Shown here: in pieces, positions 1 to 11,440 of the stretch
Numbering within the stretch: position 1 is the stretch's first letter
Layout of the letters: every line of letters begins with the position of its first letter
IMG/VR virus record: IMGVR_UViG_2585427781_000005
DNA length: 11,440 nucleotides
Reading direction: 5' to 3' (one strand)
Source of the DNA: a virus
Taxonomy: Duplodnaviria > Heunggongvirae > Uroviricota > Caudoviricetes
Notes under the pieces: model-generated
What the model was told of the DNA's origin: nothing
Seen by the model: the letters and a program-made list of their open reading frames with translations, nothing else
Database searches by the model: none
Translations under genes and position numbers: made by a program

Positions 1-1
1 C

Positions 2-961
<960 letters not shown>

Positions 962-1090
962 AAACTGGGGATAACGCCTTAAATGGCGAAGAAACGGTCT
1001 AAATAGGCTGATTCGATGTGTTTGCGGGAAAAAAATCGGCCCAGATCCGCGAAATTTTAATCAGCGAGTCAGCTTGGGAAGAAATGACCT

Positions 1091-1106
1091 GCTTATTCGC
1101 ACCTTC
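1091..1106. repeat. IS5 terminal inverted repeat (16 bp)
   Basis: cttattcgcaccttcc is read directly from the sequence, 130 bp downstream of the transposase stop. Confidence 0.8.
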
Positions 1107-1395
1107 CTTAAGTGAAGATGCTTGACGAATCGCCAAATAAAACATCTTCATCAGCATAAAAATCCATATATGATTGAAAATTTAGTCATTAATACCATTC
1201 ATATCTGAATACTGACCTAATATGCTTACTAACCGTGAGAAATCTTTTTTTTCGACTTAATCACTCGAAATAAACTTTCACTCAATTGAAAACAATTAGC
1301 TACAATTATCATTGCAATATCAAATCAAACATAACAACTTGCATAAATTCTCATGGGATACAGCATCAGTTGTGCCAAACACATAAGGAATTGAA

Positions 1396-1593
1396 ATGGA
1401 CGGAGAAAGCTTTAACTTTGATGACAATGATATTGAATTTATTGCTTCAATGTATGCATCATGTAAATTATCAGGAAGCATCGCCCCCATAATGCATATA
1501 ATGGTTAGCATTCCAAGAAATAAGAAAAAACAATTCTACGAACGAGTTGAGCATTATTGTAGTTTATATTCCAATAAAAACCCACCTTCTTAA
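1396..1593 (+). CDS. hypothetical small protein, 65 aa, acidic N-terminus (MDGESFNFDDNDIEF...), no recognisable family
   Basis: ATG at 1396 is preceded by AAGGA (1385-1389) with a 6-nt spacer, a near-ideal Shine-Dalgarno arrangement. The frame is open for 65 codons to TAA at 1591-1593, unusual in stop-rich AT-rich DNA. A TACAAT -10-like hexamer sits at 1301-1306. No homology is recognised. Confidence 0.3.
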   Translation: MDGESFNFDDNDIEFIASMYASCKLSGSIAPIMHIMVSIPRNKKKQFYERVEHYCSLYSNKNPPS

Positions 1594-1725
1594 ATTCGCT
1601 GCATTCTAGTGGATTCCATTAAGAAAACAATGACATACACTCAAACACATCTTTTTTATCAACAGTGAATTTCAGTTCGGCCAGTTTTTACCAGCTATTA
1701 TAAAAATAGCATCCATATAAAGTTT

Positions 1726-1829
1726 TTACCCCACAGGTACAGCTGGCCATTCGATAACCGCACTAAGGAAGTGCCAACACGATATCAGCAAGACCCGATA
1801 TTTCTTCCATGCCGCCAGCAACGATGTTA
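1726..1829 (-). pseudogene. remnant of the 3' end of a second, diverged tfa (tail fiber assembly) gene
   Basis: Minus-strand translation gives ...[32 protein letters not shown], against the intact Tfa C-terminus ...[32 protein letters not shown]. The DNA at 1726-1826 aligns colinearly with 2412-2512, with matching ends and a divergent centre. Upstream of ~1830 the frame is AT-rich with no Tfa similarity. Confidence 0.55.
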
Positions 1830-1981
1830 AGGTTAAATTAATTATAAAAAATATATTATAATTCCATCTTCGCATTAAATTTTAACCTTTAATCTCCACA
1901 CGGAACAAGTTGCATAGGTGACTATATTAGGAAAACTTATAACCACCAAAACATTTGCTTTGCAAACAAAAACAGTGACCA

Positions 1982-2010
1982 TTGACTCTAAGAAAATTCC
2001 GATCTATTGT
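1982..2010 (+). promoter_or_regulatory. candidate sigma70 promoter (TTGACT, 17-bp spacer, TATTGT)
   Basis: -35-like TTGACT at 1982-1987 and -10-like TATTGT at 2005-2010 with a 17-bp spacer, placed about 35 nt upstream of the ATG at 2045. This is a sequence match only, and AT-rich DNA gives many such matches. Confidence 0.2.
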
Positions 2011-2044
2011 TAGGATCATCAAAGTTACTTAACAGTATTCCGAA

Positions 2045-2146
2045 ATGAAAATACAAAGCAAGCTAATTGTCTTATTAAACATTATCATTGCATTTATATT
2101 ATTTGAGCTTTTAGCTCAAAAATTTGGTTTGAGTACATTATTTTAA
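2045..2146 (+). CDS. hypothetical 33-aa hydrophobic peptide MKIQSKLIVLLNIIIAFILFELLAQKFGLSTLF (one predicted transmembrane helix)
   Basis: ATG at 2045 to TAA at 2144-2146. The N-terminus has two lysines followed by an ~18-residue hydrophobic stretch. It sits between a promoter-like element and a clear intrinsic terminator. There is no obvious Shine-Dalgarno, and AT-rich codon bias gives I/L/F/K-rich ORFs by chance. Confidence 0.2.
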   Translation: MKIQSKLIVLLNIIIAFILFELLAQKFGLSTLF

Positions 2147-2294
2147 AGCAAGATAAACAATATCGGGCACTCTAGTTTTTATAATTAACAATTAAACGTC
2201 CATAAAATGTTATTTACTTTTGTTCGCTATTGTCATATCTTAATATAGTGGCTTACGCCACTCTACTTTCATCACATTTTGTACGTTTATGTAC

Positions 2295-2328
2295 TCGCCA
2301 TGAAGCTCTTTCATGGCGATTTTTTATT
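2295..2328 (+). terminator. rho-independent terminator (10-bp stem, 5-nt loop, T-tract), plus-strand specific
   Basis: tcgccatgaa (2295-2304) pairs with ttcatggcga (2310-2319) around loop gctct, followed by ttttttatt (2320-2328). The minus-strand reading lacks a U-tract after the hairpin, so it ends a plus-strand transcript converging on tfa. Confidence 0.6.
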
Positions 2329-2411
2329 CTTAATCCAAGAACATACTCCCTACCTATAGCAAAATCACTTTTTGAACAAAAGAATAACGTATTTAGGTAA
2401 TCATTACGAAT

Positions 2412-2993
2412 TTACCCTATAGGTGCTACTGGCCATTCAATATCCGGTGCAGTTGTTGTATTAACACGGTTCAGCAACACCCGATACTTTTTCCAGGCTT
2501 CCAGCAACGAGTTTTCTTCCTCCGTTGCGATTTCCAGATCTACAGCATCCTGAAGTGGCGCAATATGCTCATTCGCTGCCTGCATCAGGCTGTTTTTTGT
2601 TTCTTCCGCCTCCCGGATCCGGAATAGTTTTTCTGCTTCTGCATCTTTCACCCAGGCTGTGCCGTTCCACTTCTGAAACTCCCCTTCCGGGGATAACCAG
2701 GTGACATTTTCCGGTAATGAGCCGAGTTCAGAAATAAATAACGCGTCGCCGGAAGCCACGTCATAAACCGTTTTACCCCGATGATCTTCAACGAGATGCC
2801 ACGATAACTCATCACTGTTGAAAACAGCCACGAAGCCAGCTGGAATATCTGGCGGTGCAATGTCGGTACTGTTTGCTGGCAGACCTGTATGAGGCGGAAT
2901 ATATGCATCACCTTCACCAATAAATTCATTAGTTCCGGACAGCAGATTATAAATTTTTATGGTCCGTGCTTGTTCACTCATTCTGAATGCCAT
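2412..2993 (-). CDS. tfa: tail fiber assembly protein Tfa (lambda Tfa-like chaperone), 193 aa
   Basis: The translation [51 protein letters not shown]... matches lambda Tfa from memory. Its ATG overlaps the stf stop as TAATG (2991-2995). Confidence 0.95.
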
Positions 2994-5900
2994 TATGCAA
3001 GCCTCACAATATAGTTAAATGCGATGTTTTTGACGGTGTTTTCCGCGTTACCAGCAGCGTTAACGGTGATGGTGTGTCCATGTGAACCAATCGCAACCGA
3101 GTGCGTATGCGCACCAATACCTACAGTATGTGCGTGTGCACCTGCGCTTGCAGCAGTACCCGATACAGAGTGCGTATGAGCGCCTGCAGAAGAAGTGTTA
3201 ACACTGTATTTAGAATAATCAGGTGATCCACTTCCCGGAGCACCACTGGAACCACCTGAAACAAATGTCATCGAATGGGTATGTGCACCGGCTGAAGCAG
3301 CCGTACCGCTAACACTATGGGTATGCGCACCAGTGTTATTCGTGGATTTAGTGCCGTAATCAAACGACGATGTGGTTTTCGTCCCCAAATCAGTACTGGA
3401 TGCGCTGGCGCTGTGGGTATGCGATTTTATGCCGTCCTGTTCCTGAGACAATACGGCACGACCACTGGCGGGCTTGCCCTTAATCGTCCAGCCACGCATA
3501 TCAGGGATCACGCCTGACGGATAAGCGGCTGCAAGTTTCGGGTAGGCAGATTTGTCAAAAGTCTGCCCCTGCATCAGGGCATAACCAGACGGAACGGTAT
3601 CTGATGGCCACGGGATTGGTGCGCCGACTGGGTAGCTTTCTGGTGGAAGATTTTTCGAGGTATAAACTTCTGCCCAGTCTTCCTCAAAACCATAACCGTC
3701 TCTTGAAGAACGGTAGAACAGACCACCATTTCTGTAATGCGCCTTCATCTGCAAGGTCCGGCAACTTCCGACTCCGGTATAGAAGTTAACCAGAATATAG
3801 CTGTCGCCAGAGCGGGTGACCTTATAAGCGCCTGATTCGGCATTCCAGGGAACGCCCCCATCCGCATCGGCATATGTATCCGTTGCCCTTCTGGCAAAAG
3901 CAGCCACATGCGCGGCGGTTAAAGTGATATCAGTAGAACCATCAAATGGAACACCGGATATTTTTCTTGCAGTCTGAAGTTTTGTAGCAGTTGCAGCATT
4001 ACCAGTGGTGTTCTGATTACCCGTAGTGTTTACACCTGGAAGGTTAATATTTGCAGAACCGTCGAAAACAACTCCACCGATAGATCTTGCCGTCTGCAAT
4101 TTCGTGGCTGTACTTGCATTACCATTCAATGAACCAGTTAATCCACCTGTAACAGACAACGGACCTGAAACTGTTCCTCCGGTTGTTGGCAGTGCTCCAA
4201 TATCTGATGGTGTAGGTTTCTGATGTGAGCTATACATCGTATAAACAACACCATAGGTAACGCTGGAAGGCTTACTCGCTGAATATGTTGGCGAGGTATA
4301 AACAGAAACTGACGCATTTGCAGTACAATCCCAATGGATATTTACACTCGTCGCATAATTGCCAATCTCAACGTAAATATCATATGTATCGCCGGATGTG
4401 TTGATCCAGGCGAAATTCGTTAATCCGACGGCTGTACGCTTCCACAAAGCCCCGGTAATTCCTTTGGGGTTTCCATTGCCTGCTCGTAGAACCAGTTCTG
4501 AAATGCCTGCCTGATGTGGGGAACCGACGTTGTAACCAGCGCCACCAATCAATGCGATGTAAACGATGGAACTCGCTTGTGGCATGGTAACCGTAGCCAG
4601 TTTGAACCACCCAGCCCCGCCAGAGAAAGACATCGTTACTGAATTTAAAGTACCAATATCTTTCGGCGTTAATGTTATATCCGCAGTCAGTGCTTTTCCG
4701 TTAACTTTTCGGTTAGATGGCACCCTGCTATTCGCATTGTCATTGGCTGCTTTAACTGCTTTTGGCGTTGCGGCCAGCGATTCACTGGTGCTATCAACAG
4801 CACTGCTAAGTTTCACAACACCTTTAGTTGTAAGGCTTGCGTCTTCCATCGCAACTGCACCGGCCATCTCTTCAGCACGATCAGCAGCAGCTTCCGCACG
4901 GGTCGCAGCGGATTCAGCAGTAGTTTTGCTCTGAGATGCTGCCGTCGCACTGCCTGCCGCCTCTGTTGCCTTCGTGGATGCCGTCGTGGCGCTGCTCTTC
5001 GCTGCTGACGCCTGTCTGGTCGCCTCATCTTTTGAAGCAGACGCAGATGATGCCGATGACGACGCCGAACTGGCTGACGATGCGGCAGCCGTTTTTGAGG
5101 ATTCTGCGCTGGTTTCCGACGCTTTCGCGTTCGTTTCGGATGTCTTCGCTGCGGAAGCAGACCTCGCTGCTGCGCTGGCCTGTTCAGTGGCTTCGCCAGC
5201 CTTCGTTGTGGCTGTTGAAGCAGACGATGCGGCGCTTTCTGCCGATTTTCCGGCGGCGGTGGCACTGGCTGAGGCCTGCCCGGCACTTGTTGACGCTGCA
5301 CTGGCAGACGACGCAGCCGCTGTTTTTGAGCCTGCCGCAGCCGAGGCGCTCTGTCCCGCTGCCGTTTCAGAAGACCTGGCGTTCGTCTCTGACGTTTTTG
5401 CCGCCTTCGCGGAATTTCCTGCCGCTGTTGCCGAGGAAGCTGCGCTACTGGCGCTCGAGGATGCGTTCGTTTCTGATGATTTTGCCGCCTCTTTTGAAGC
5501 CGCCGCATCCCGGGCTGAGGTGGCAGCTTCTGACGCTTTCGTAGTTGCGGTGGATGCAGAAGTGGCTGCTGATTGTTGTGACGCTGCAGCATTCGTTTCT
5601 GACGTTTTCGCGGCACTGGCACTGGTAGCTGCCGCGCTTTTTGAGGACTCTGCAGCGGCAGCACTTTTTGATGCTTCAGTAGCCTTTGTTGATGCCGTTC
5701 CTGCGCTGGAAGTCGCTGACTGAGCCGACGACGCGGCCTGTCCGGCTGACGTGCTGGCTGCGCGTGCTGAGCCTGCAGCATCAGTCGCATGGGTTGCCGC
5801 CTCACGGGCTGATGTGCTGGCATCACTGGCTGACTTCTTCGCGGCTGCCGTGTTCTGTGCCACCACGGACGCGTTACGCGCCACCTCTTCCACCATCAGC

Positions 5901-6220
5901 TCAAAACGGCGCAGTGCCTCCGGACGGGCATCATCCTCCGTCATGGCACCGAGAAAATCATTCAGCGTACCGGGTCGGGAATCTTCATACACTGTGATGG
6001 TCCCGGCATGTGACGGCGGGAATCCTTCCACCAACAGACTGACGCTGTACTGACCGTACTCAACGTCCATACTGTAACGCCCGGCTTCATCCGGATTTTC
6101 AGATGCCAGCGTGTTCACCACCACCGTGGTACTGTTACGTTTTGCTTTCAGCTGGATTGTGCAGTTCTGTACCGGTTTTCCTGTGCCGTCTTTCAGTACA
6201 CCTGAAATTTTTACTGCCAT
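2993..6220 (-). CDS. stf: side tail fiber protein Stf, intact, 1075 aa from the ATG at 6220
   Basis: N-terminus [26 protein letters not shown]... and C-terminus ...[31 protein letters not shown] match lambda Stf from memory. The track start at 6226 is a GTG two codons upstream; ATG at 6218-6220 gives the canonical MAVKISG N-terminus and follows GGGG at a suitable distance. Confidence 0.95.
3914..4120 (-). repeat. two copies of a ~29-aa phage tail-fiber repeat inside stf
   Basis: The DNA at 3965-4003 and 4085-4123 is visibly repeated and encodes N-A-[SA][11 protein letters not shown][GS]-G-V-x-F-D-G-S twice. Confidence 0.7.
4847..5854 (-). repeat. low-complexity Ala/Ser/Thr-rich shaft region of Stf with a recurring AAKTSETNA motif
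   Basis: About 335 residues are dominated by A, S and [10 protein letters not shown] occurs three times, 70 and 84 residues apart. This GC-rich, stop-poor DNA accounts for the long overlapping ORFs in other frames. Confidence 0.75.
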
Positions 6221-6231
6221 ATTCACCCCAC

Positions 6232-6258
6232 AAAAAAGCCCGCCTGAACCGGCGGGCT
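6232..6258 (-). terminator. rho-independent terminator downstream of lom, immediately upstream of the stf start
   Basis: On the minus strand agcccgcc / ggcgggct form an 8-bp GC-rich stem (plus-strand 6237-6244 and 6251-6258) with a 6-nt loop, followed by a 5-6-nt U-tract (plus-strand aaaaaa 6232-6237). It lies 8 nt upstream of the stf SD/ATG. Confidence 0.55.
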
Positions 6259-6284
6259 GTCATAACACTGTGTTACCTGGCTAA

Positions 6285-6884
6285 TCAGAATTTATAACCA
6301 ACACCCACGATGAACCCGTCAGTGCGCCAGTCACCACTGCCGGAGCCTTCATAAGCGACATCAATGGCCACGGATTCGGTCGGGTTAAACTGCACGCCAG
6401 CTCCCCACGCCAGAGACGTGTTGCTGTGGCGACCGTCATCACTTCCGGTCAGCACATCGTGCTTTTTCCCCTTGTTGTCAGTTACGTGGAGATAATCCCC
6501 GGAGAAAGTCGACACACGGCTGTAAGCCACACCCGCCATCGCATACGCGCTGAACCATTCATTCACGCGCACAGACGGCCCCGCCATTACGCTGAACCAG
6601 CGGTTACGAACGGAATCTTCATGCCAGCGGGTATCGCTGTAACGGGTAATCTGGCGATTCTTGTCTCCTGCATAGCTGAACGACGTCACCATCCCCAGTG
6701 TGTCCGTAAACTCATAACGGTATTTCACGTTAATCCCGTTCAGATCATCACTGCCGGGAACGTTCGTCCGGGCATGAAGATACCCCGCGCTCAGCGTGGA
6801 CTGATGTTCAGACGCCCATGCAGGCGCACCGGATACGGCCAGACAAATGGCTGCGGACAAAATGGCGGCATAAAGTTTACGCAT
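6285..6884 (-). CDS. lom: outer membrane protein Lom (Ail/Lom/PagC family beta-barrel), 199 aa
   Basis: The translation [38 protein letters not shown]...[10 protein letters not shown] matches lambda Lom from memory, with a signal-peptide-like N-terminus, a C-terminal aromatic residue, and a GAGG Shine-Dalgarno. Confidence 0.95.
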
Positions 6885-6906
6885 AATTACCTCTCGCTTT
6901 TCTGCA

Positions 6907-6932
6907 ATAAAAAAGGCGTCATTTCTGACGCC
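6907..6932 (-). terminator. rho-independent terminator between J and lom
   Basis: On the minus strand ggcgtca / tgacgcc form a 7-bp stem (plus-strand 6915-6921 and 6926-6932) with a GAAA tetraloop, followed by ttttttat (plus-strand 6907-6914). It lies 19 nt after the J stop and 22 nt before the lom ATG. Confidence 0.55.
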
Positions 6933-6950
6933 CGTTCTGGGTTATAAAAT

Positions 6951-10352
<3,402 letters not shown>

Positions 10353-10372
10353 TCACGCTCCATAAACGACAA

Positions 10373-10390
10373 AACCGCCCGGAGGCGGTT
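10373..10390 (-). other. GC-rich hairpin in the I-J intergenic region
   Basis: aaccgcc (10373-10379) and ggcggtt (10384-10390) form a 7-bp stem with a 4-nt loop. On the minus strand it is followed by ttgtcgttta, which is U-rich but interrupted. Function is unclear. Confidence 0.3.
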
Positions 10391-10409
10391 TCACATAAAA
10401 CATTTTGCA

Positions 10410-11057
10410 TCAGCGACCAATCACCACAACCTGACCACCATCCCCTTCGTCTGCCGTGCTGATCTCCTGAGAAACCACCCGCGACCCCACGCGCATTTCA
10501 CCGTACAGAACAGGCAAAACATTGCCCTGGGCAACCATGTTATCCAGTGAGGAGAAATAGGTGTTCTGTTTGCCGTTATCTGTACTGGCTGCCGTGGGCG
10601 TCCTGGCTTTCGGTGCCAGCATCTGCGCCACTCCGCCCAGGATCATACTGGCCCCTGCCGCATACATGCCCGATACAGCCGCGGCACCCAGCCAGCCCAC
10701 AGGGTTCCACCATGCCACCGCAATCAGCGCCGCCCCAAGCACCACCTGAAACACACCGCCACTTTTAGCTCCCGCCAGACGCGGCACGATGTGGATCACG
10801 GCACCATTTGCCAGCGGCTCATTAAGACGGGCAGATAATTCATTTTCGCCTGCATCACGCCCGGCAATGCGCACCTGATACCAGCCCTTATTCAGTTTCT
10901 GACGAAACGCCGGGAGCTGAGTGGCCAGCGCCCGGATGGCTTCGGCCCCCGTTTTCACACGAAGGTCGATGCGGCGGCCAAATCGTTGCAAATCCCCGTA
11001 AAGGCAGATGCGTGCCATGCCCGGTGACGCCAGAGGGAGTGTGTGCGTCGCTGCCAT
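10410..11057 (-). CDS. I: tail assembly protein I, 215 aa
   Basis: The N-terminus MAATHTLPLASPGMARICLYGDLQRFGRRIDLRVKTGAEAIRALATQLPAFRQKL and C-terminus ...NVLPVLYGEMRVGSRVVSQEISTADEGDGGQVVVIGR match lambda I from memory. The central hydrophobic segment is shorter than I remember for lambda. Confidence 0.93.
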   Translation of the reverse strand: MAATHTLPLASPGMARICLYGDLQRFGRRIDLRVKTGAEAIRALATQLPAFRQKLNKGWYQVRIAGRDAGENELSARLNEPLANGAVIHIVPRLAGAKSGGVFQVVLGAALIAVAWWNPVGWLGAAAVSGMYAAGASMILGGVAQMLAPKARTPTAASTDNGKQNTYFSSLDNMVAQGNVLPVLYGEMRVGSRVVSQEISTADEGDGGQVVVIGR

Positions 11058-11440
11058 TTGTCGGTATACCTCTCTCGTTTGCTCAGTTGTTCAGGAATAT
11101 GGTGCAGCAGCTCGCCGTCGCCGCAGTAAATAGCGGCATGATTCGGCACCGATGAACCAAAACAGCACAGCAGCACATCGCCCGGCTGCGCCGCTGACAA
11201 CGGCACCTGATACAGCCCTGTAGCCTCCAGATTATCCAGATAGAGATTCTGACCGTTACGCCACCAGTCATCCCCGCGATGAAAATCCGGCATCTCAATC
11301 CCCGCCAGATGGTAAGCATCCCGGAACAGCGTGTAACAGTCCGTCACCCCGTGCTCAAAGCGCCGCCCGGTGAGATGCGGCACACAGCGGAATTTATGAA
11401 TCTCACCCCGGCAGACCAGCCACCACGGCAAATCACTCTG
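10955..11440 (-). CDS. K: tail assembly protein K (NlpC/P60-type cysteine peptidase domain), C-terminal part only
   Basis: The frame is open to the window end. The track start at 11431 is a TTG read as Met, not a real start. The D-C-Y-T-L motif (nt 11327-11341) carries the NlpC/P60 catalytic Cys. The 103-nt overlap with I matches the lambda K/I arrangement. Confidence 0.9.
   Translation of the reverse strand, partial: QSDLPWWLVCRGEIHKFRCVPHLTGRRFEHGVTDCYTLFRDAYHLAGIEMPDFHRGDDWWRNGQNLYLDNLEATGLYQVPLSAAQPGDVLLCCFGSSVPNHAAIYCGDGELLHHIPEQLSKRERYTDKWQRRTHSLWRHRAWHASAFTGICNDLAAASTFV

Follow-up and report, generated by a model that had tools for sequence, protein, structure and literature searches.

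The AT-rich segment at positions 1108-2411 of the window (the whole 11,440-nucleotide stretch of DNA that was analysed) is a variable cargo slot, equivalent to the lambda b region, at the tail-fibre end of a Qin-type lambdoid prophage in ydfJ. We think it likely that this Qin-family slot contains two modules lying behind tfa 3′ ends: module A, which would be a moron-like unit with a putative YncL-family peptide gene, and module B, which would hold no functional gene (Table 1). As prophage cargo slots go it is an ordinary one with one modestly new item, the predicted gene for a prophage-borne YncL paralogue, and outside this gene the segment looks like ordinary mosaic scar DNA. A conserved YncL-like peptide gene is predicted directly behind tfa in about 15% of complete E. 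coli genomes and in several viable lambdoid phages. The first-pass annotation had interpreted the segment as an AT-rich accessory island, free of long open reading frames (ORFs), between tfa and an IS5 element, and this interpretation is partly supported.

Table 1. Coordinates of features in and around the AT-rich segment
Feature	Position	Strand	Description and evidence
IS5-family element, ISKpn26-like, 3′ part	1..1107	+	transposase ORF 62-961; terminal inverted repeat ends at 1107
TTAA, 4-bp IS target	1108..1111	none	equals L001 12002-12005 in the IS-free locus
Module B	1108..1724	none	AT-rich, 31.3% G+C; left end cut by the IS
65-aa orphan ORF	1396..1593	+	PGAP hypothetical protein WP_001421370.1; good Shine-Dalgarno sequence (AAGGA)
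tfa relic	1725..1833	−	last ~33 codons and stop codon; direct repeat of 2411-2526; 49.5% G+C
Module A	1834..2411	none	AT-rich, 28.9% G+C; follows the tfa stop codon
Promoter candidate, sigma-70-like	1982..2010	+	TTGACT-17-TATTGT; 9/12 consensus match
yncL-like gene, 33 codons	2045..2146	+	encodes MKIQSKLIVLLNIIIAFILFELLAQKFGLSTLF; NCBIfam, BLASTP, shuffle, substitution pattern; predicted single-pass small membrane protein
6-bp hairpin in 3′ untranslated region	2247..2262	+	conserved; fold
Intrinsic terminator (predicted)	2295..2328	+	10-11-bp stem followed by AUUUUUUAUU; fold
tfa, intact tail fibre assembly gene, 193 aa	2412..2993	−	PF02413, 9.5e-44; phrog_105; annotated tfaQ in L001

A variable cargo slot next to tfa

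The segment has a G+C content of 31.7%, computed from the window sequence, and is bordered to the left and right by DNA of about 54% G+C (54.4% in the IS part at 1-1107 and 54.5% over the whole tail side, with 47.3% in tfa itself). The low values run from the tfa stop codon (2412, minus strand) to the IS inverted repeat (cttattcgcaccttcc, last nucleotide 1107), which confirms the sharp compositional drop that had been described between these two points; the bounds proposed for it, 1107-2411, are correct to within 1 nt, the IS ending at 1107 and the TTAA occupying 1108-1111. The reported lack of a long ORF is confirmed as well. The longest ORF with a start codon encodes 68 aa, and the longest stop-free stretch, at 72 aa, is at chance level since mononucleotide shuffles of the island gave 73 ± 17 aa. 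An Rfam scan of 900-2700 at E ≤ 1 returned no known RNA family in the island, only IS009 and a chance snoRNA match; the island has no tRNA genes and no tandem repeats, and its small ORFs gave no match in PHROGs, Pfam or PADLOC. For the 33-codon ORF of module A, too, the local Pfam copy was empty, although one frameshifted database variant carries a precomputed PF28073 match.

In NZ_AP022215, a locus that is free of the IS and otherwise identical, truncated ydfJ′ (the Qin attachment site) is followed by about 0.42 kb, the segment and then tfa(tfaQ)-stf-lom-J. K-12 Qin has the same integration site, ydfJ, an attR-side arm that is 88% identical and a tfa that is 94% identical, but it diverges immediately 3′ of the tfaQ stop codon, and the content between the arms is wholly different: K-12 carries ynfT-ydfK-pinQ there, whereas the segment has neither an invertase nor a cold-shock gene. 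The K-12 slot also includes ynfT (YnaM/YnfT family), which encodes a small hydrophobic protein, although that protein is unrelated to the YncL-like peptide of the segment. Most genomes share only ydfJ with the IS-free locus L001, to about position 11579, and K-12- and B-type Qin prophages share it to about 11846. Beyond tfa, other prophages carry sitABCD, an AraC-type regulator or a DinI-like gene.

The b region of lambda lies between tfa and att, and EHEC prophages have exchangeable effector loci downstream of their tail-fibre genes. The segment likewise lies between tfa and the attachment site and its content varies among relatives, so that the earlier suggestion of a b-region-like variable slot is supported both by the gene order in NZ_AP022215 and by the different content of K-12 Qin between the same arms. 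Its position beyond tfa is that of other lambdoid prophage cargo loci, and in MP1 and GF54 module A lies between tfa and sitABCD; here, however, what follows is module B and the IS alone, without a conventional cargo gene. The first-pass annotation had set its island against ordinary conserved backbone DNA of the phage family, and the segment goes part of the way towards the latter, 577 complete E. coli genomes carrying the whole 1.3 kb with at least 95% identity.

Two AT-rich modules separated by a tfa relic

Within the segment, 109 nt depart from the low G+C content, an exception that 200-nt windows smooth to 38.5%. These nucleotides are a relic of the tfa 3′ end. Alignment showed 81-85% identity to the end of the intact gene at a spacing of 686 nt, a repeat search returned direct repeats of the tfa 3′ end (D1/D2) at 1725-1824 and 2411-2510, and the translation of the relic, ...IEWPAVPVG, confirms its origin. 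A second Rfam IS009 match falls on the relic; the IS009 model covers the coding 3′ half of tfa, and IS009 matches therefore reflect tfa homology. The cargo slot proposed earlier stands, but the single island does not, as there are two AT-rich modules split by the relic. Because this piece of tfa separates the two modules, part of the content derives from the tail module, contrary to the view that the tail module explains none of it.

A third copy of the tfa 3′ end lies further left in IS-free relatives (L001 11886-11961), and all three copies are in direct orientation. The mosaic junctions coincide with tfa stop codons. GF54 has relic 1 (1725-1833) and the start of module A in common with the window, with Bcr-sitABCD in place of module B. 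We rejected a Pin/Gin-type invertible segment as a reading of the relic, the copies being direct rather than inverted and an invertase being absent here, and also a specific site at which the relics were commonly truncated, since relic 2 reaches about 18 nt beyond relic 1.

These observations suggest that two AT-rich modules were stacked, each immediately behind a tfa 3′ end (one intact, the other a relic of about 100 nt), and that the stack is what remains after tail fibres and cargo had been exchanged repeatedly around this conserved end. Recombination of the relaxed homologous or the illegitimate kind may have produced these exchanges; between lambda and Qin or Rac, Red-dependent relaxed homologous recombination occurs at stf/tfa (PMC3945230). 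The layered relics would then form a readable record of how the tail-fibre end of lambdoid prophages is rebuilt. A more speculative and rather doubtful extension is that the repeated tfa 3′ ends act as portable homology anchors, units of a ~100-nt tfa 3′ block plus an AT-rich module being added, swapped or lost by Red/RecET-type recombination so that cargo stacks behind tfa. The three direct copies and the junctions exactly at tfa stop codons are consistent with such anchors, as is the joining of one relic to module B in the window or to Bcr-sitABCD in GF54. Cargo arrays would then stack somewhat as integron cassettes do, but without a site-specific recombinase. We saw no gain/loss polymorphism of modules through the tfa repeats, the junction of relic 1 with module B being fixed in 580 genomes, and found neither an intact ancestral arrangement of tfa with module B nor copies that had lost module A by repeat recombination.

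A putative YncL-family gene in module A

The 33-codon ORF of module A matched the NCBIfam YncL profile NF000537 (E = 1.3e-5) over profile positions 1-28 of 30 with the starts aligned. The score, 25.0 bits, does not reach the curated equivalog cut-off of 35 bits, and a match that is significant yet below threshold suggests a paralogue or distant member rather than an equivalog. BLASTP against K-12 YncL gave 11/28 identical and 18/28 positive residues without gaps (39% identity, E = 2e-7). In a Smith-Waterman comparison the pair scored 60, whereas shuffled sequences scored 20 ± 4 with a maximum of 45 in 20000 (p < 5e-5), so that by BLASTP and shuffling alike the similarity goes beyond composition. 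The 19 other ORFs of the AT-rich island gave no match.

YncL (b4598) is a stress-induced inner-membrane protein of E. coli K-12 with 31 aa, close in length to the prophage peptide. The two align start to start, sharing M1, S5, L10, N12, A16, L19-F20, L22 and F27-G28, and both are predicted to start with a basic N-terminus that leads into one hydrophobic helix; in the prophage peptide, as read from its sequence, MKIQSK precedes an 18-residue hydrophobic stretch, which agrees with the size and helix of a YncL-type protein. They differ in that the prophage peptide is only 39% identical and under the equivalog cut-off, in that yncL lies at the chromosomal patD-ortT locus whereas the prophage gene adjoins tfa, and in that yncL has the Shine-Dalgarno sequence AAGGTGG whereas the prophage ORF has none upstream. 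The flanking DNA and terminator are unrelated, and the function of the prophage peptide is predicted only.

All 92 locus observations (44/44 and 48/48) show an uninterrupted ORF. In the MP1 copy it shows four synonymous changes and one non-synonymous change, and in the GF54 copy five amino-acid changes against about nine synonymous codons with zero indels, compared with 34 indel columns in the flanks. This pattern points to purifying selection on small substitution numbers, as only two diverged copies are informative and none comes from outside E. coli. The ORF is unannotated in all RefSeq records listed. Pattern scans of one-genome-per-species contigs with the terminator and with the ORF core gave 0 matches each, and a profile-guided IMG/VR scan returned near-identical copies only, plus one at 85%; these scans found no distant phage-borne relatives of the peptide and nothing outside E. 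coli. A tblastn search of phage records with the peptide came back empty even though mEp332 and other phages contain it, a miss that we put down to the low-complexity filter. No paper in our literature search ties yncL to prophages in the manner described here, nor did the peptide string occur in searchable paper text.

Transcription signals and the nature of module A

Of 5426 complete E. coli genomes, about 830 carry module A together with a tfa 3′ end and about 4600 lack the module; it is also present in the isolated phages mEp332, ev099 and PhiR70_1. These tfa-proximal 578 bp of the segment travel with the tfa 3′ end, and as a rule with the tip of stf as well, both in those genomes and in viable phages. 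Module A thus behaves as a fixed partner of the tail-fibre cassette more than as free cargo, which does not support the accessory island as first described.

The promoter candidate upstream of the ORF keeps its position in the 80%-identical GF54 copy (TTGACT-17-TATCGT). The region contains no more promoter-like matches than shuffled sequence does (4 against an expected 7.3), and we regard the evidence for this promoter as weak. The predicted terminator is convincing, being strong and correctly oriented: it ends 84 nt before the tfa stop and would halt plus-strand transcripts converging on tfa. The structure of terminator and hairpin has z = −5.8, with a U-tail on the plus strand only and no T-run on the minus strand. 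In the GF54 copy, 80% identical overall, the terminator is ~96% conserved and falls within the best-conserved part of the module.

The whole segment might instead be non-functional AT-rich scar DNA, probably bound by H-NS, with the 33-codon ORF a chance frame. Its longest ORFs are indeed no longer than chance, the 33-codon ORF lacks a Shine-Dalgarno sequence and module A is without any RefSeq annotation; moreover, the tfa relics mark a recombination graveyard, and IS elements accumulate (IS1 in H19 and H128, ISKpn26 here). A chance frame, however, does not account for a YncL similarity that depends on residue order (by both the shuffles and the profile E value), for an ORF uninterrupted at every locus observed, for a synonymous excess and lack of indels amid indel-rich flanks, or for so well conserved and correctly oriented a terminator, and we consider scar DNA throughout unlikely.

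It is less likely still that the product of module A is an RNA instead of a peptide, either a 3′-UTR-derived or an independent small RNA from 2238-2328 (hairpin, A/U-rich linker and terminator). That the structure is stable, that 2238-2320 is best conserved in the 80% copy (about three changes in 75 nt) and that a C-to-T change in the hairpin stem of the MP1 copy keeps a G-U pair on the plus strand only would all fit such an RNA; yet no compensatory double changes are available, Rfam gave no match, and an RNA-only model leaves the coding-type substitution pattern of the ORF unexplained. The RNA and peptide readings are, in any case, mutually compatible. We give very little weight to a type I toxin-antitoxin system, in which the role of toxin would fall to the hydrophobic 33-aa peptide and a cis-antisense RNA would keep it in check. 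The predicted peptide, small, hydrophobic and single-pass, resembles Hok, Ldr, TisB and Ibs, and overproduction of its relative YncL depolarises the membrane; on the minus strand, a promoter-like site (2236-2207) is directed into the ORF, and a leader without a Shine-Dalgarno sequence is expected for tightly repressed toxins. Unlike for these toxins, no cognate antisense RNA was found for the peptide, and the stretch that would encode it, 2147-2235, shows the lowest conservation and the most indels within module A in GF54. The minus strand has no convincing terminator, Rfam again returned no family, and the YncL literature searched does not describe YncL as a member of a toxin-antitoxin pair.

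The reading we prefer is that module A is a moron-like transcription unit converging on tfa, running from the candidate promoter at ~1982-2010 through the YncL-family peptide gene and a structured 3′ untranslated region to the intrinsic terminator. The moron concept reportedly goes back to Hendrix and Juhala. Like morons and the lambda b region, the module lies between tfa and the attachment site and is present or absent in related prophages with identical flanks: it is extra DNA between elements that are adjacent in relatives, as seen in K-12 Qin with the same arms and in the genomes with and without it. Its G+C content is far under that of the phage (28.9% vs 54.5%). Of the transcription signals expected of a moron, its own factor-independent terminator is convincing, but the candidate promoter is a 9/12 match of a kind not enriched in the region. 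It differs from morons in its payload, which would be a peptide gene of 33 codons, putatively expressed from the repressed prophage, instead of a conventional protein gene, and in being tightly tied to the tfa 3′ end across contexts.

Overproduction of YncL leads to membrane depolarisation and nucleoid condensation and pushes cells towards a quiescent state (PMC12542507). Given these effects, a phage-borne copy is a plausible lysogenic-conversion factor, for which stress tolerance, persistence or phage exclusion would be candidate targets. We infer that the peptide is made in the lysogen and inserted into the inner membrane, where, if YncL-like, it might lower membrane potential and metabolic activity and so affect stress tolerance or the exclusion of phages. 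More generally, prophage stretches that appear to lack ORFs can hide small genes under selection.

Module B and its 65-aa ORF

About 590 of the 5426 genomes contain module B, each of them in the ydfJ-prophage arrangement; the phage collection lacks it. It contains no convincingly functional gene, and the coding status of its 65-aa ORF is doubtful. That this ORF is a real gene, encoding a small regulator of three helices and a distant relative of GlgS or of the theta/Hot family, strikes us as improbable, although in most genomes it is annotated by PGAP, a good Shine-Dalgarno sequence precedes it and an AF2 single-sequence model predicts three helices (pLDDT 69). The match to the NCBIfam GlgS profile (E = 0.037) is colinear over 11-57 and pairwise BLASTP gave E = 1e-4, but the profile score is 14 bits against a cut-off of 105. 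Foldseek of the model against the PDB found no significant neighbour, the top match being Hot/theta at E = 0.8, and did not return GlgS; phmmer against PDB sequences was empty, and we rejected the GlgS link as unproven. The ORF occurs in E. coli only, in 13 clusters, several with frameshifted C-termini, and its synonymous/non-synonymous counts (3/6 plus a frameshift, 3/9 and 3/3) suggest that it evolves almost neutrally. It is no better conserved than its flanks, and its length is within chance for the composition. Annotated neighbouring "hypothetical proteins" such as this one can thus be less credible than an unannotated small ORF.

The IS insertion

Module B was cut by a private insertion of the ISKpn26 type, whose junction with the segment occurs in none of the 5426 complete E. 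coli genomes. The end of the element was placed by comparison with another copy. Its assignment to IS5 holds at the level of the family, given the Pfam domains DDE_Tnp_1 and DUF772 in the transposase and the 4-bp TTAA target, but it is not canonical IS5: it is closest (98%) to copies that PGAP labels ISKpn26, most other matching records being at 80-95%. IS elements have accumulated at this region, with IS1 in H19 and H128 and the ISKpn26-type element in the window.

Composition and borders of the AT-rich segment

In a 200-nt sliding window, G+C ran at 47-60% over positions 1-1100, fell to 26-38% over 1101-2400 and went up again from 2401, which bears out the sharp drop between the IS5-family end and the tfa stop described in the first-pass annotation (31.7% in the island, against 54.4% and 47.3% on its two sides). 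Its statement that the island holds no long ORF is also right. With a start codon required, ORFs reach 68 aa at most; the longest stop-free stretch, 72 aa, is what shuffled islands give (73 +/- 17 aa), so that the ORFs of 63-68 aa carry no weight by length alone. The element at the left end, named IS5 in the first-pass annotation, does belong to the IS5 family, but it is nearest to PGAP-labelled ISKpn26 copies (98%) and not to canonical IS5. None of 5426 complete E. coli genomes has the junction 1107/1108, so the insertion, which hit a TTAA in the left-hand part of the island (module B), is private to this DNA and recent. Other genomes (H19 and H128) have IS1 within the same island, so that the AT-rich slot collects insertion sequences.

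Coordinates of the island, its borders and its candidate features (window positions unless another locus is named)
Feature	Position	Strand	Details
IS part	1-1107		G+C 54.4%
Left border of island	end 1107		IS5-family inverted repeat, then TTAA
Whole island	1108-2411		G+C 31.7%
Module B	1108-1724		G+C 31.3%
Hypothetical protein, 65 aa	1396-1593		WP_001421370.1; PGAP call; good Shine-Dalgarno sequence
tfa 3' relic 1	1725-1833		G+C 49.5%
Module A	1834-2411		G+C 28.9%
Promoter-like site	1982-2010		TTGACT-17-TATTGT; position kept in GF54
33-codon ORF	2045-2146	+	encodes MKIQSKLIVLLNIIIAFILFELLAQKFGLSTLF; terminator downstream
Intrinsic terminator	2295-2319 (stem)	+	strong; stem 10-11 bp, then AUUUUUUAUU; end 84 nt before tfa stop
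Right border of island	tfa stop codon	-	193-aa tail fibre assembly gene; PF02413, 9.5e-44
tfa	2412-2993		G+C 47.3%
Whole tail side	2412-11440		G+C 54.5%
Recurring ~90-nt block	L001 11755-11846; L047 3865-3951; L046 1822-1917

The island fills a variable slot of Qin-family prophages

The whole 1305 nt occurs at >=95% identity in 577 of the 5426 genomes, chromosomal in every case. In L001, an IS-free locus of NZ_AP022215 whose island copy is 100% identical, the gene order is ydfI, truncated ydfJ, ~0.42 kb, the island segment, tfaQ, stf, lom, J and then the other tail genes. With the junction next to ydfJ as the query, several break points appeared across E. coli genomes: most have ydfJ alone in common, up to L001 ~11579, which is the prophage/host boundary; in K-12- and B-type strains homology runs ~267 bp further, to L001 ~11846; and the complete L001 arrangement is common to 566 genomes. 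Qin, a cryptic prophage of K-12, agrees with this locus in its ydfJ junction, in the arm (88%) and in tfa (94%), but has ynfT-ydfK-pinQ between arm and tfa in place of the segment. What the segment occupies is therefore the variable slot that a Qin-family lambdoid prophage has between tfa and attR. The island is the equivalent of the lambda b region, as the first-pass annotation had placed it, and variable, AT-rich DNA behind tfa is nothing unusual in a lambdoid prophage.

tfa 3' relics and the mosaic joint

What had been read as a single accessory island is instead two AT-rich modules, B and A, with a tfa 3' relic between them. A 49-codon ORF on the - strand ends in IEWPAVPVG, the conserved Tfa C-terminus; 1725-1824 and 2411-2510 are direct repeats at 81-85% identity, with a spacing of 686 nt; and the relic is far richer in G+C than either flanking module. 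The Rfam model IS009 (RF02111), which scores 212 bits on the coding 3' half of tfa (2452-2650, -) and weakly on the relic (1765-1840, -), here detects tfa homology and is no evidence for an RNA gene. To the immediate left of the IS target, IS-free relatives have yet another tfa 3' copy, the third and a more decayed one (relic 2, L001 11886-11961; 76% to window 2433-2509, direct orientation; equivalent position ~40-115 bp left of window 1107), so the ancestral slot had three tfa 3' ends in series. Its order was attR arm, relic 2, module B, relic 1, module A, intact tfa. We rejected inversion by a Pin-type system as the source of the relics, and likewise recombination at a specific site, since the tfa copies are direct and not inverted, an invertase is absent here, and the relics have no common start point, relic 2 being ~18 nt longer than relic 1.

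The two modules differ in their spread. Module A was present in 823-831 E. coli genomes, in ~48 IMG/VR contigs and in three phage isolates (mEp332, ev099 and PhiR70_1), and it is linked to the tfa 3' end: at most of 44 loci homology extends past tfa as far as the stf tip (~3145-3184), while at ~8 of the 44 it breaks earlier, either inside the gene (~2554) or at its stop codon. One IMG/VR contig (2563366948_000001; L024 ~12586) has module A cut at window-equivalent 2291 with unrelated DNA beyond, and retains only the terminator and 120 nt adjoining tfa. Beyond module A the DNA differs, with module B in the window and an AraC-type regulator in phages of the mEp332 type; in the prophages of MP1 and GF54, whose copies of module A are diverged, it is sitABCD. 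Module B occurs in ~590 genomes, in the ydfJ arrangement in all, and no copy was found in the phage collection. Of the two, module A does travel with the tail-fibre cassette, and module B has the narrower distribution.

GF54 is near-identical to the window over relic 1 and the opening ~130 nt of module A, has Bcr-sitABCD at the position of module B, and loses homology directly after the relic stop codon; K-12 diverges directly after the tfaQ stop. These break points identify the tfa 3' end as a recurrent mosaic joint, in agreement with experiments in which lambda underwent relaxed, Red-dependent homologous recombination with Qin or Rac at stf/tfa (PMC3945230). The stack may be the outcome of one exchange of tail fibre and cargo after another, with this conserved end as the anchor; that tfa 3' blocks serve as portable homology anchors for stacking cargo modules is a tentative idea that we consider rather unlikely. 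Another short conserved joint of the mosaic region is a ~90-nt block of the attR-side arm, which recurs at 80-84% beside sitD in MP1 and GF54.

Module A carries a probable YncL-like gene

Pfam and PHROGs searches of the 33-codon ORF of module A gave no match. NCBIfam NF000537, for the stress-response membrane protein YncL, matched it (E=1.3e-5, profile 1-28/30) with 25 bits, under the equivalog cut-off of 35 bits; the 19 other ORFs of the island had no NCBIfam match. Against K-12 YncL (MNVSSRTVVLINFFAAVGLFTLISMRFGWFI, taken from the genome), BLASTP aligned the 33-aa peptide start-to-start and ungapped (identities 11/28, positives 18/28, E=2e-7). The Smith-Waterman score was 60, while 20000 shuffles gave 20 +/- 4 with a maximum of 45, so the similarity is not a composition effect. 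A frameshifted database variant of the product has a precomputed PF28073 match.

The frame is intact in 44/44 and 48/48 loci. Informative substitutions within it are few: the MP1 copy has 4 synonymous changes and 1 non-synonymous, and the GF54 copy, in a module 80% identical to ours, still has its full 33 codons, of which 5 carry replacements and ~9 are changed synonymously, against 89 substitutions and 34 indel columns in the rest of the module. No Shine-Dalgarno sequence was found before the ORF, and it is not annotated in the RefSeq records among the matches listed. We consider the ORF quite likely to be a real small-protein gene of the YncL family, with a moron-like organisation. The K-12 Qin slot (L053 2891-3004) also begins with a gene for a small hydrophobic protein, ynfT (YnaM/YnfT family, 64 bits), whose product has no relationship to the YncL-like one; genes for small membrane peptides seem to be a recurring feature of the Qin-type prophage end. 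That the island is pure scar DNA would suit its relics and its want of a long ORF, and is unlikely beside a frame kept at every locus examined. A type I toxin-antitoxin pair, to which a small membrane peptide might point, is highly improbable for module A.

The promoter-like site upstream is a weak call because such sites are not enriched here. No T-run follows the terminator hairpin on the - strand, so the terminator is oriented to end a transcript converging on tfa. The best-conserved stretch of module A in GF54 is 2238-2320 (hairpin, linker and terminator). An RNA-only product from this 3' end would be compatible with the other readings, and we hold it to be very unlikely. As for the YncL-like gene, module A may be transcribed independently in the lysogen, and the peptide would then insert into the inner membrane and lower membrane potential and metabolic activity, by analogy with overproduced YncL (PMC12542507). 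If so, stress tolerance or phage exclusion could be affected. What is modestly new is an unannotated prophage-borne YncL paralogue, carried by ~15% of the complete E. coli genomes and also by viable phages.

The module B ORF and other frames

The 65-aa ORF of module B has relatives in E. coli only (13 clusters), several with a frameshifted C-terminus. Synonymous/non-synonymous changes number 3/6 in L051, which also has a frameshift, 3/9 in L050, whose assembly may be poor, and 3/3 in the IMG/VR copy, and conservation is no better than in the flanks. Similarity to GlgS is marginal, with E=0.037 for the profile and 1e-4 for the pairwise comparison. A single-sequence AlphaFold model has three helices (pLDDT 69) and no significant PDB neighbour, the best being Hot/theta at E=0.8, with GlgS not listed. 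We conclude that the ORF is probably non-functional, the chance of its being real lying between unlikely and doubtful; a functional regulator, for which its good Shine-Dalgarno sequence might speak, is improbable.

On the tail side, a 674-aa ORF (7725-9749, +) runs antisense to J (6951-10349, -) and is probably spurious. The window stf (2993-6226, -) is ~84 nt (28 codons) longer than that of L001, at 5407-5490, in loci otherwise 100% identical; the difference has the look of an in-frame indel within a repetitive stretch of this side tail fibre gene.
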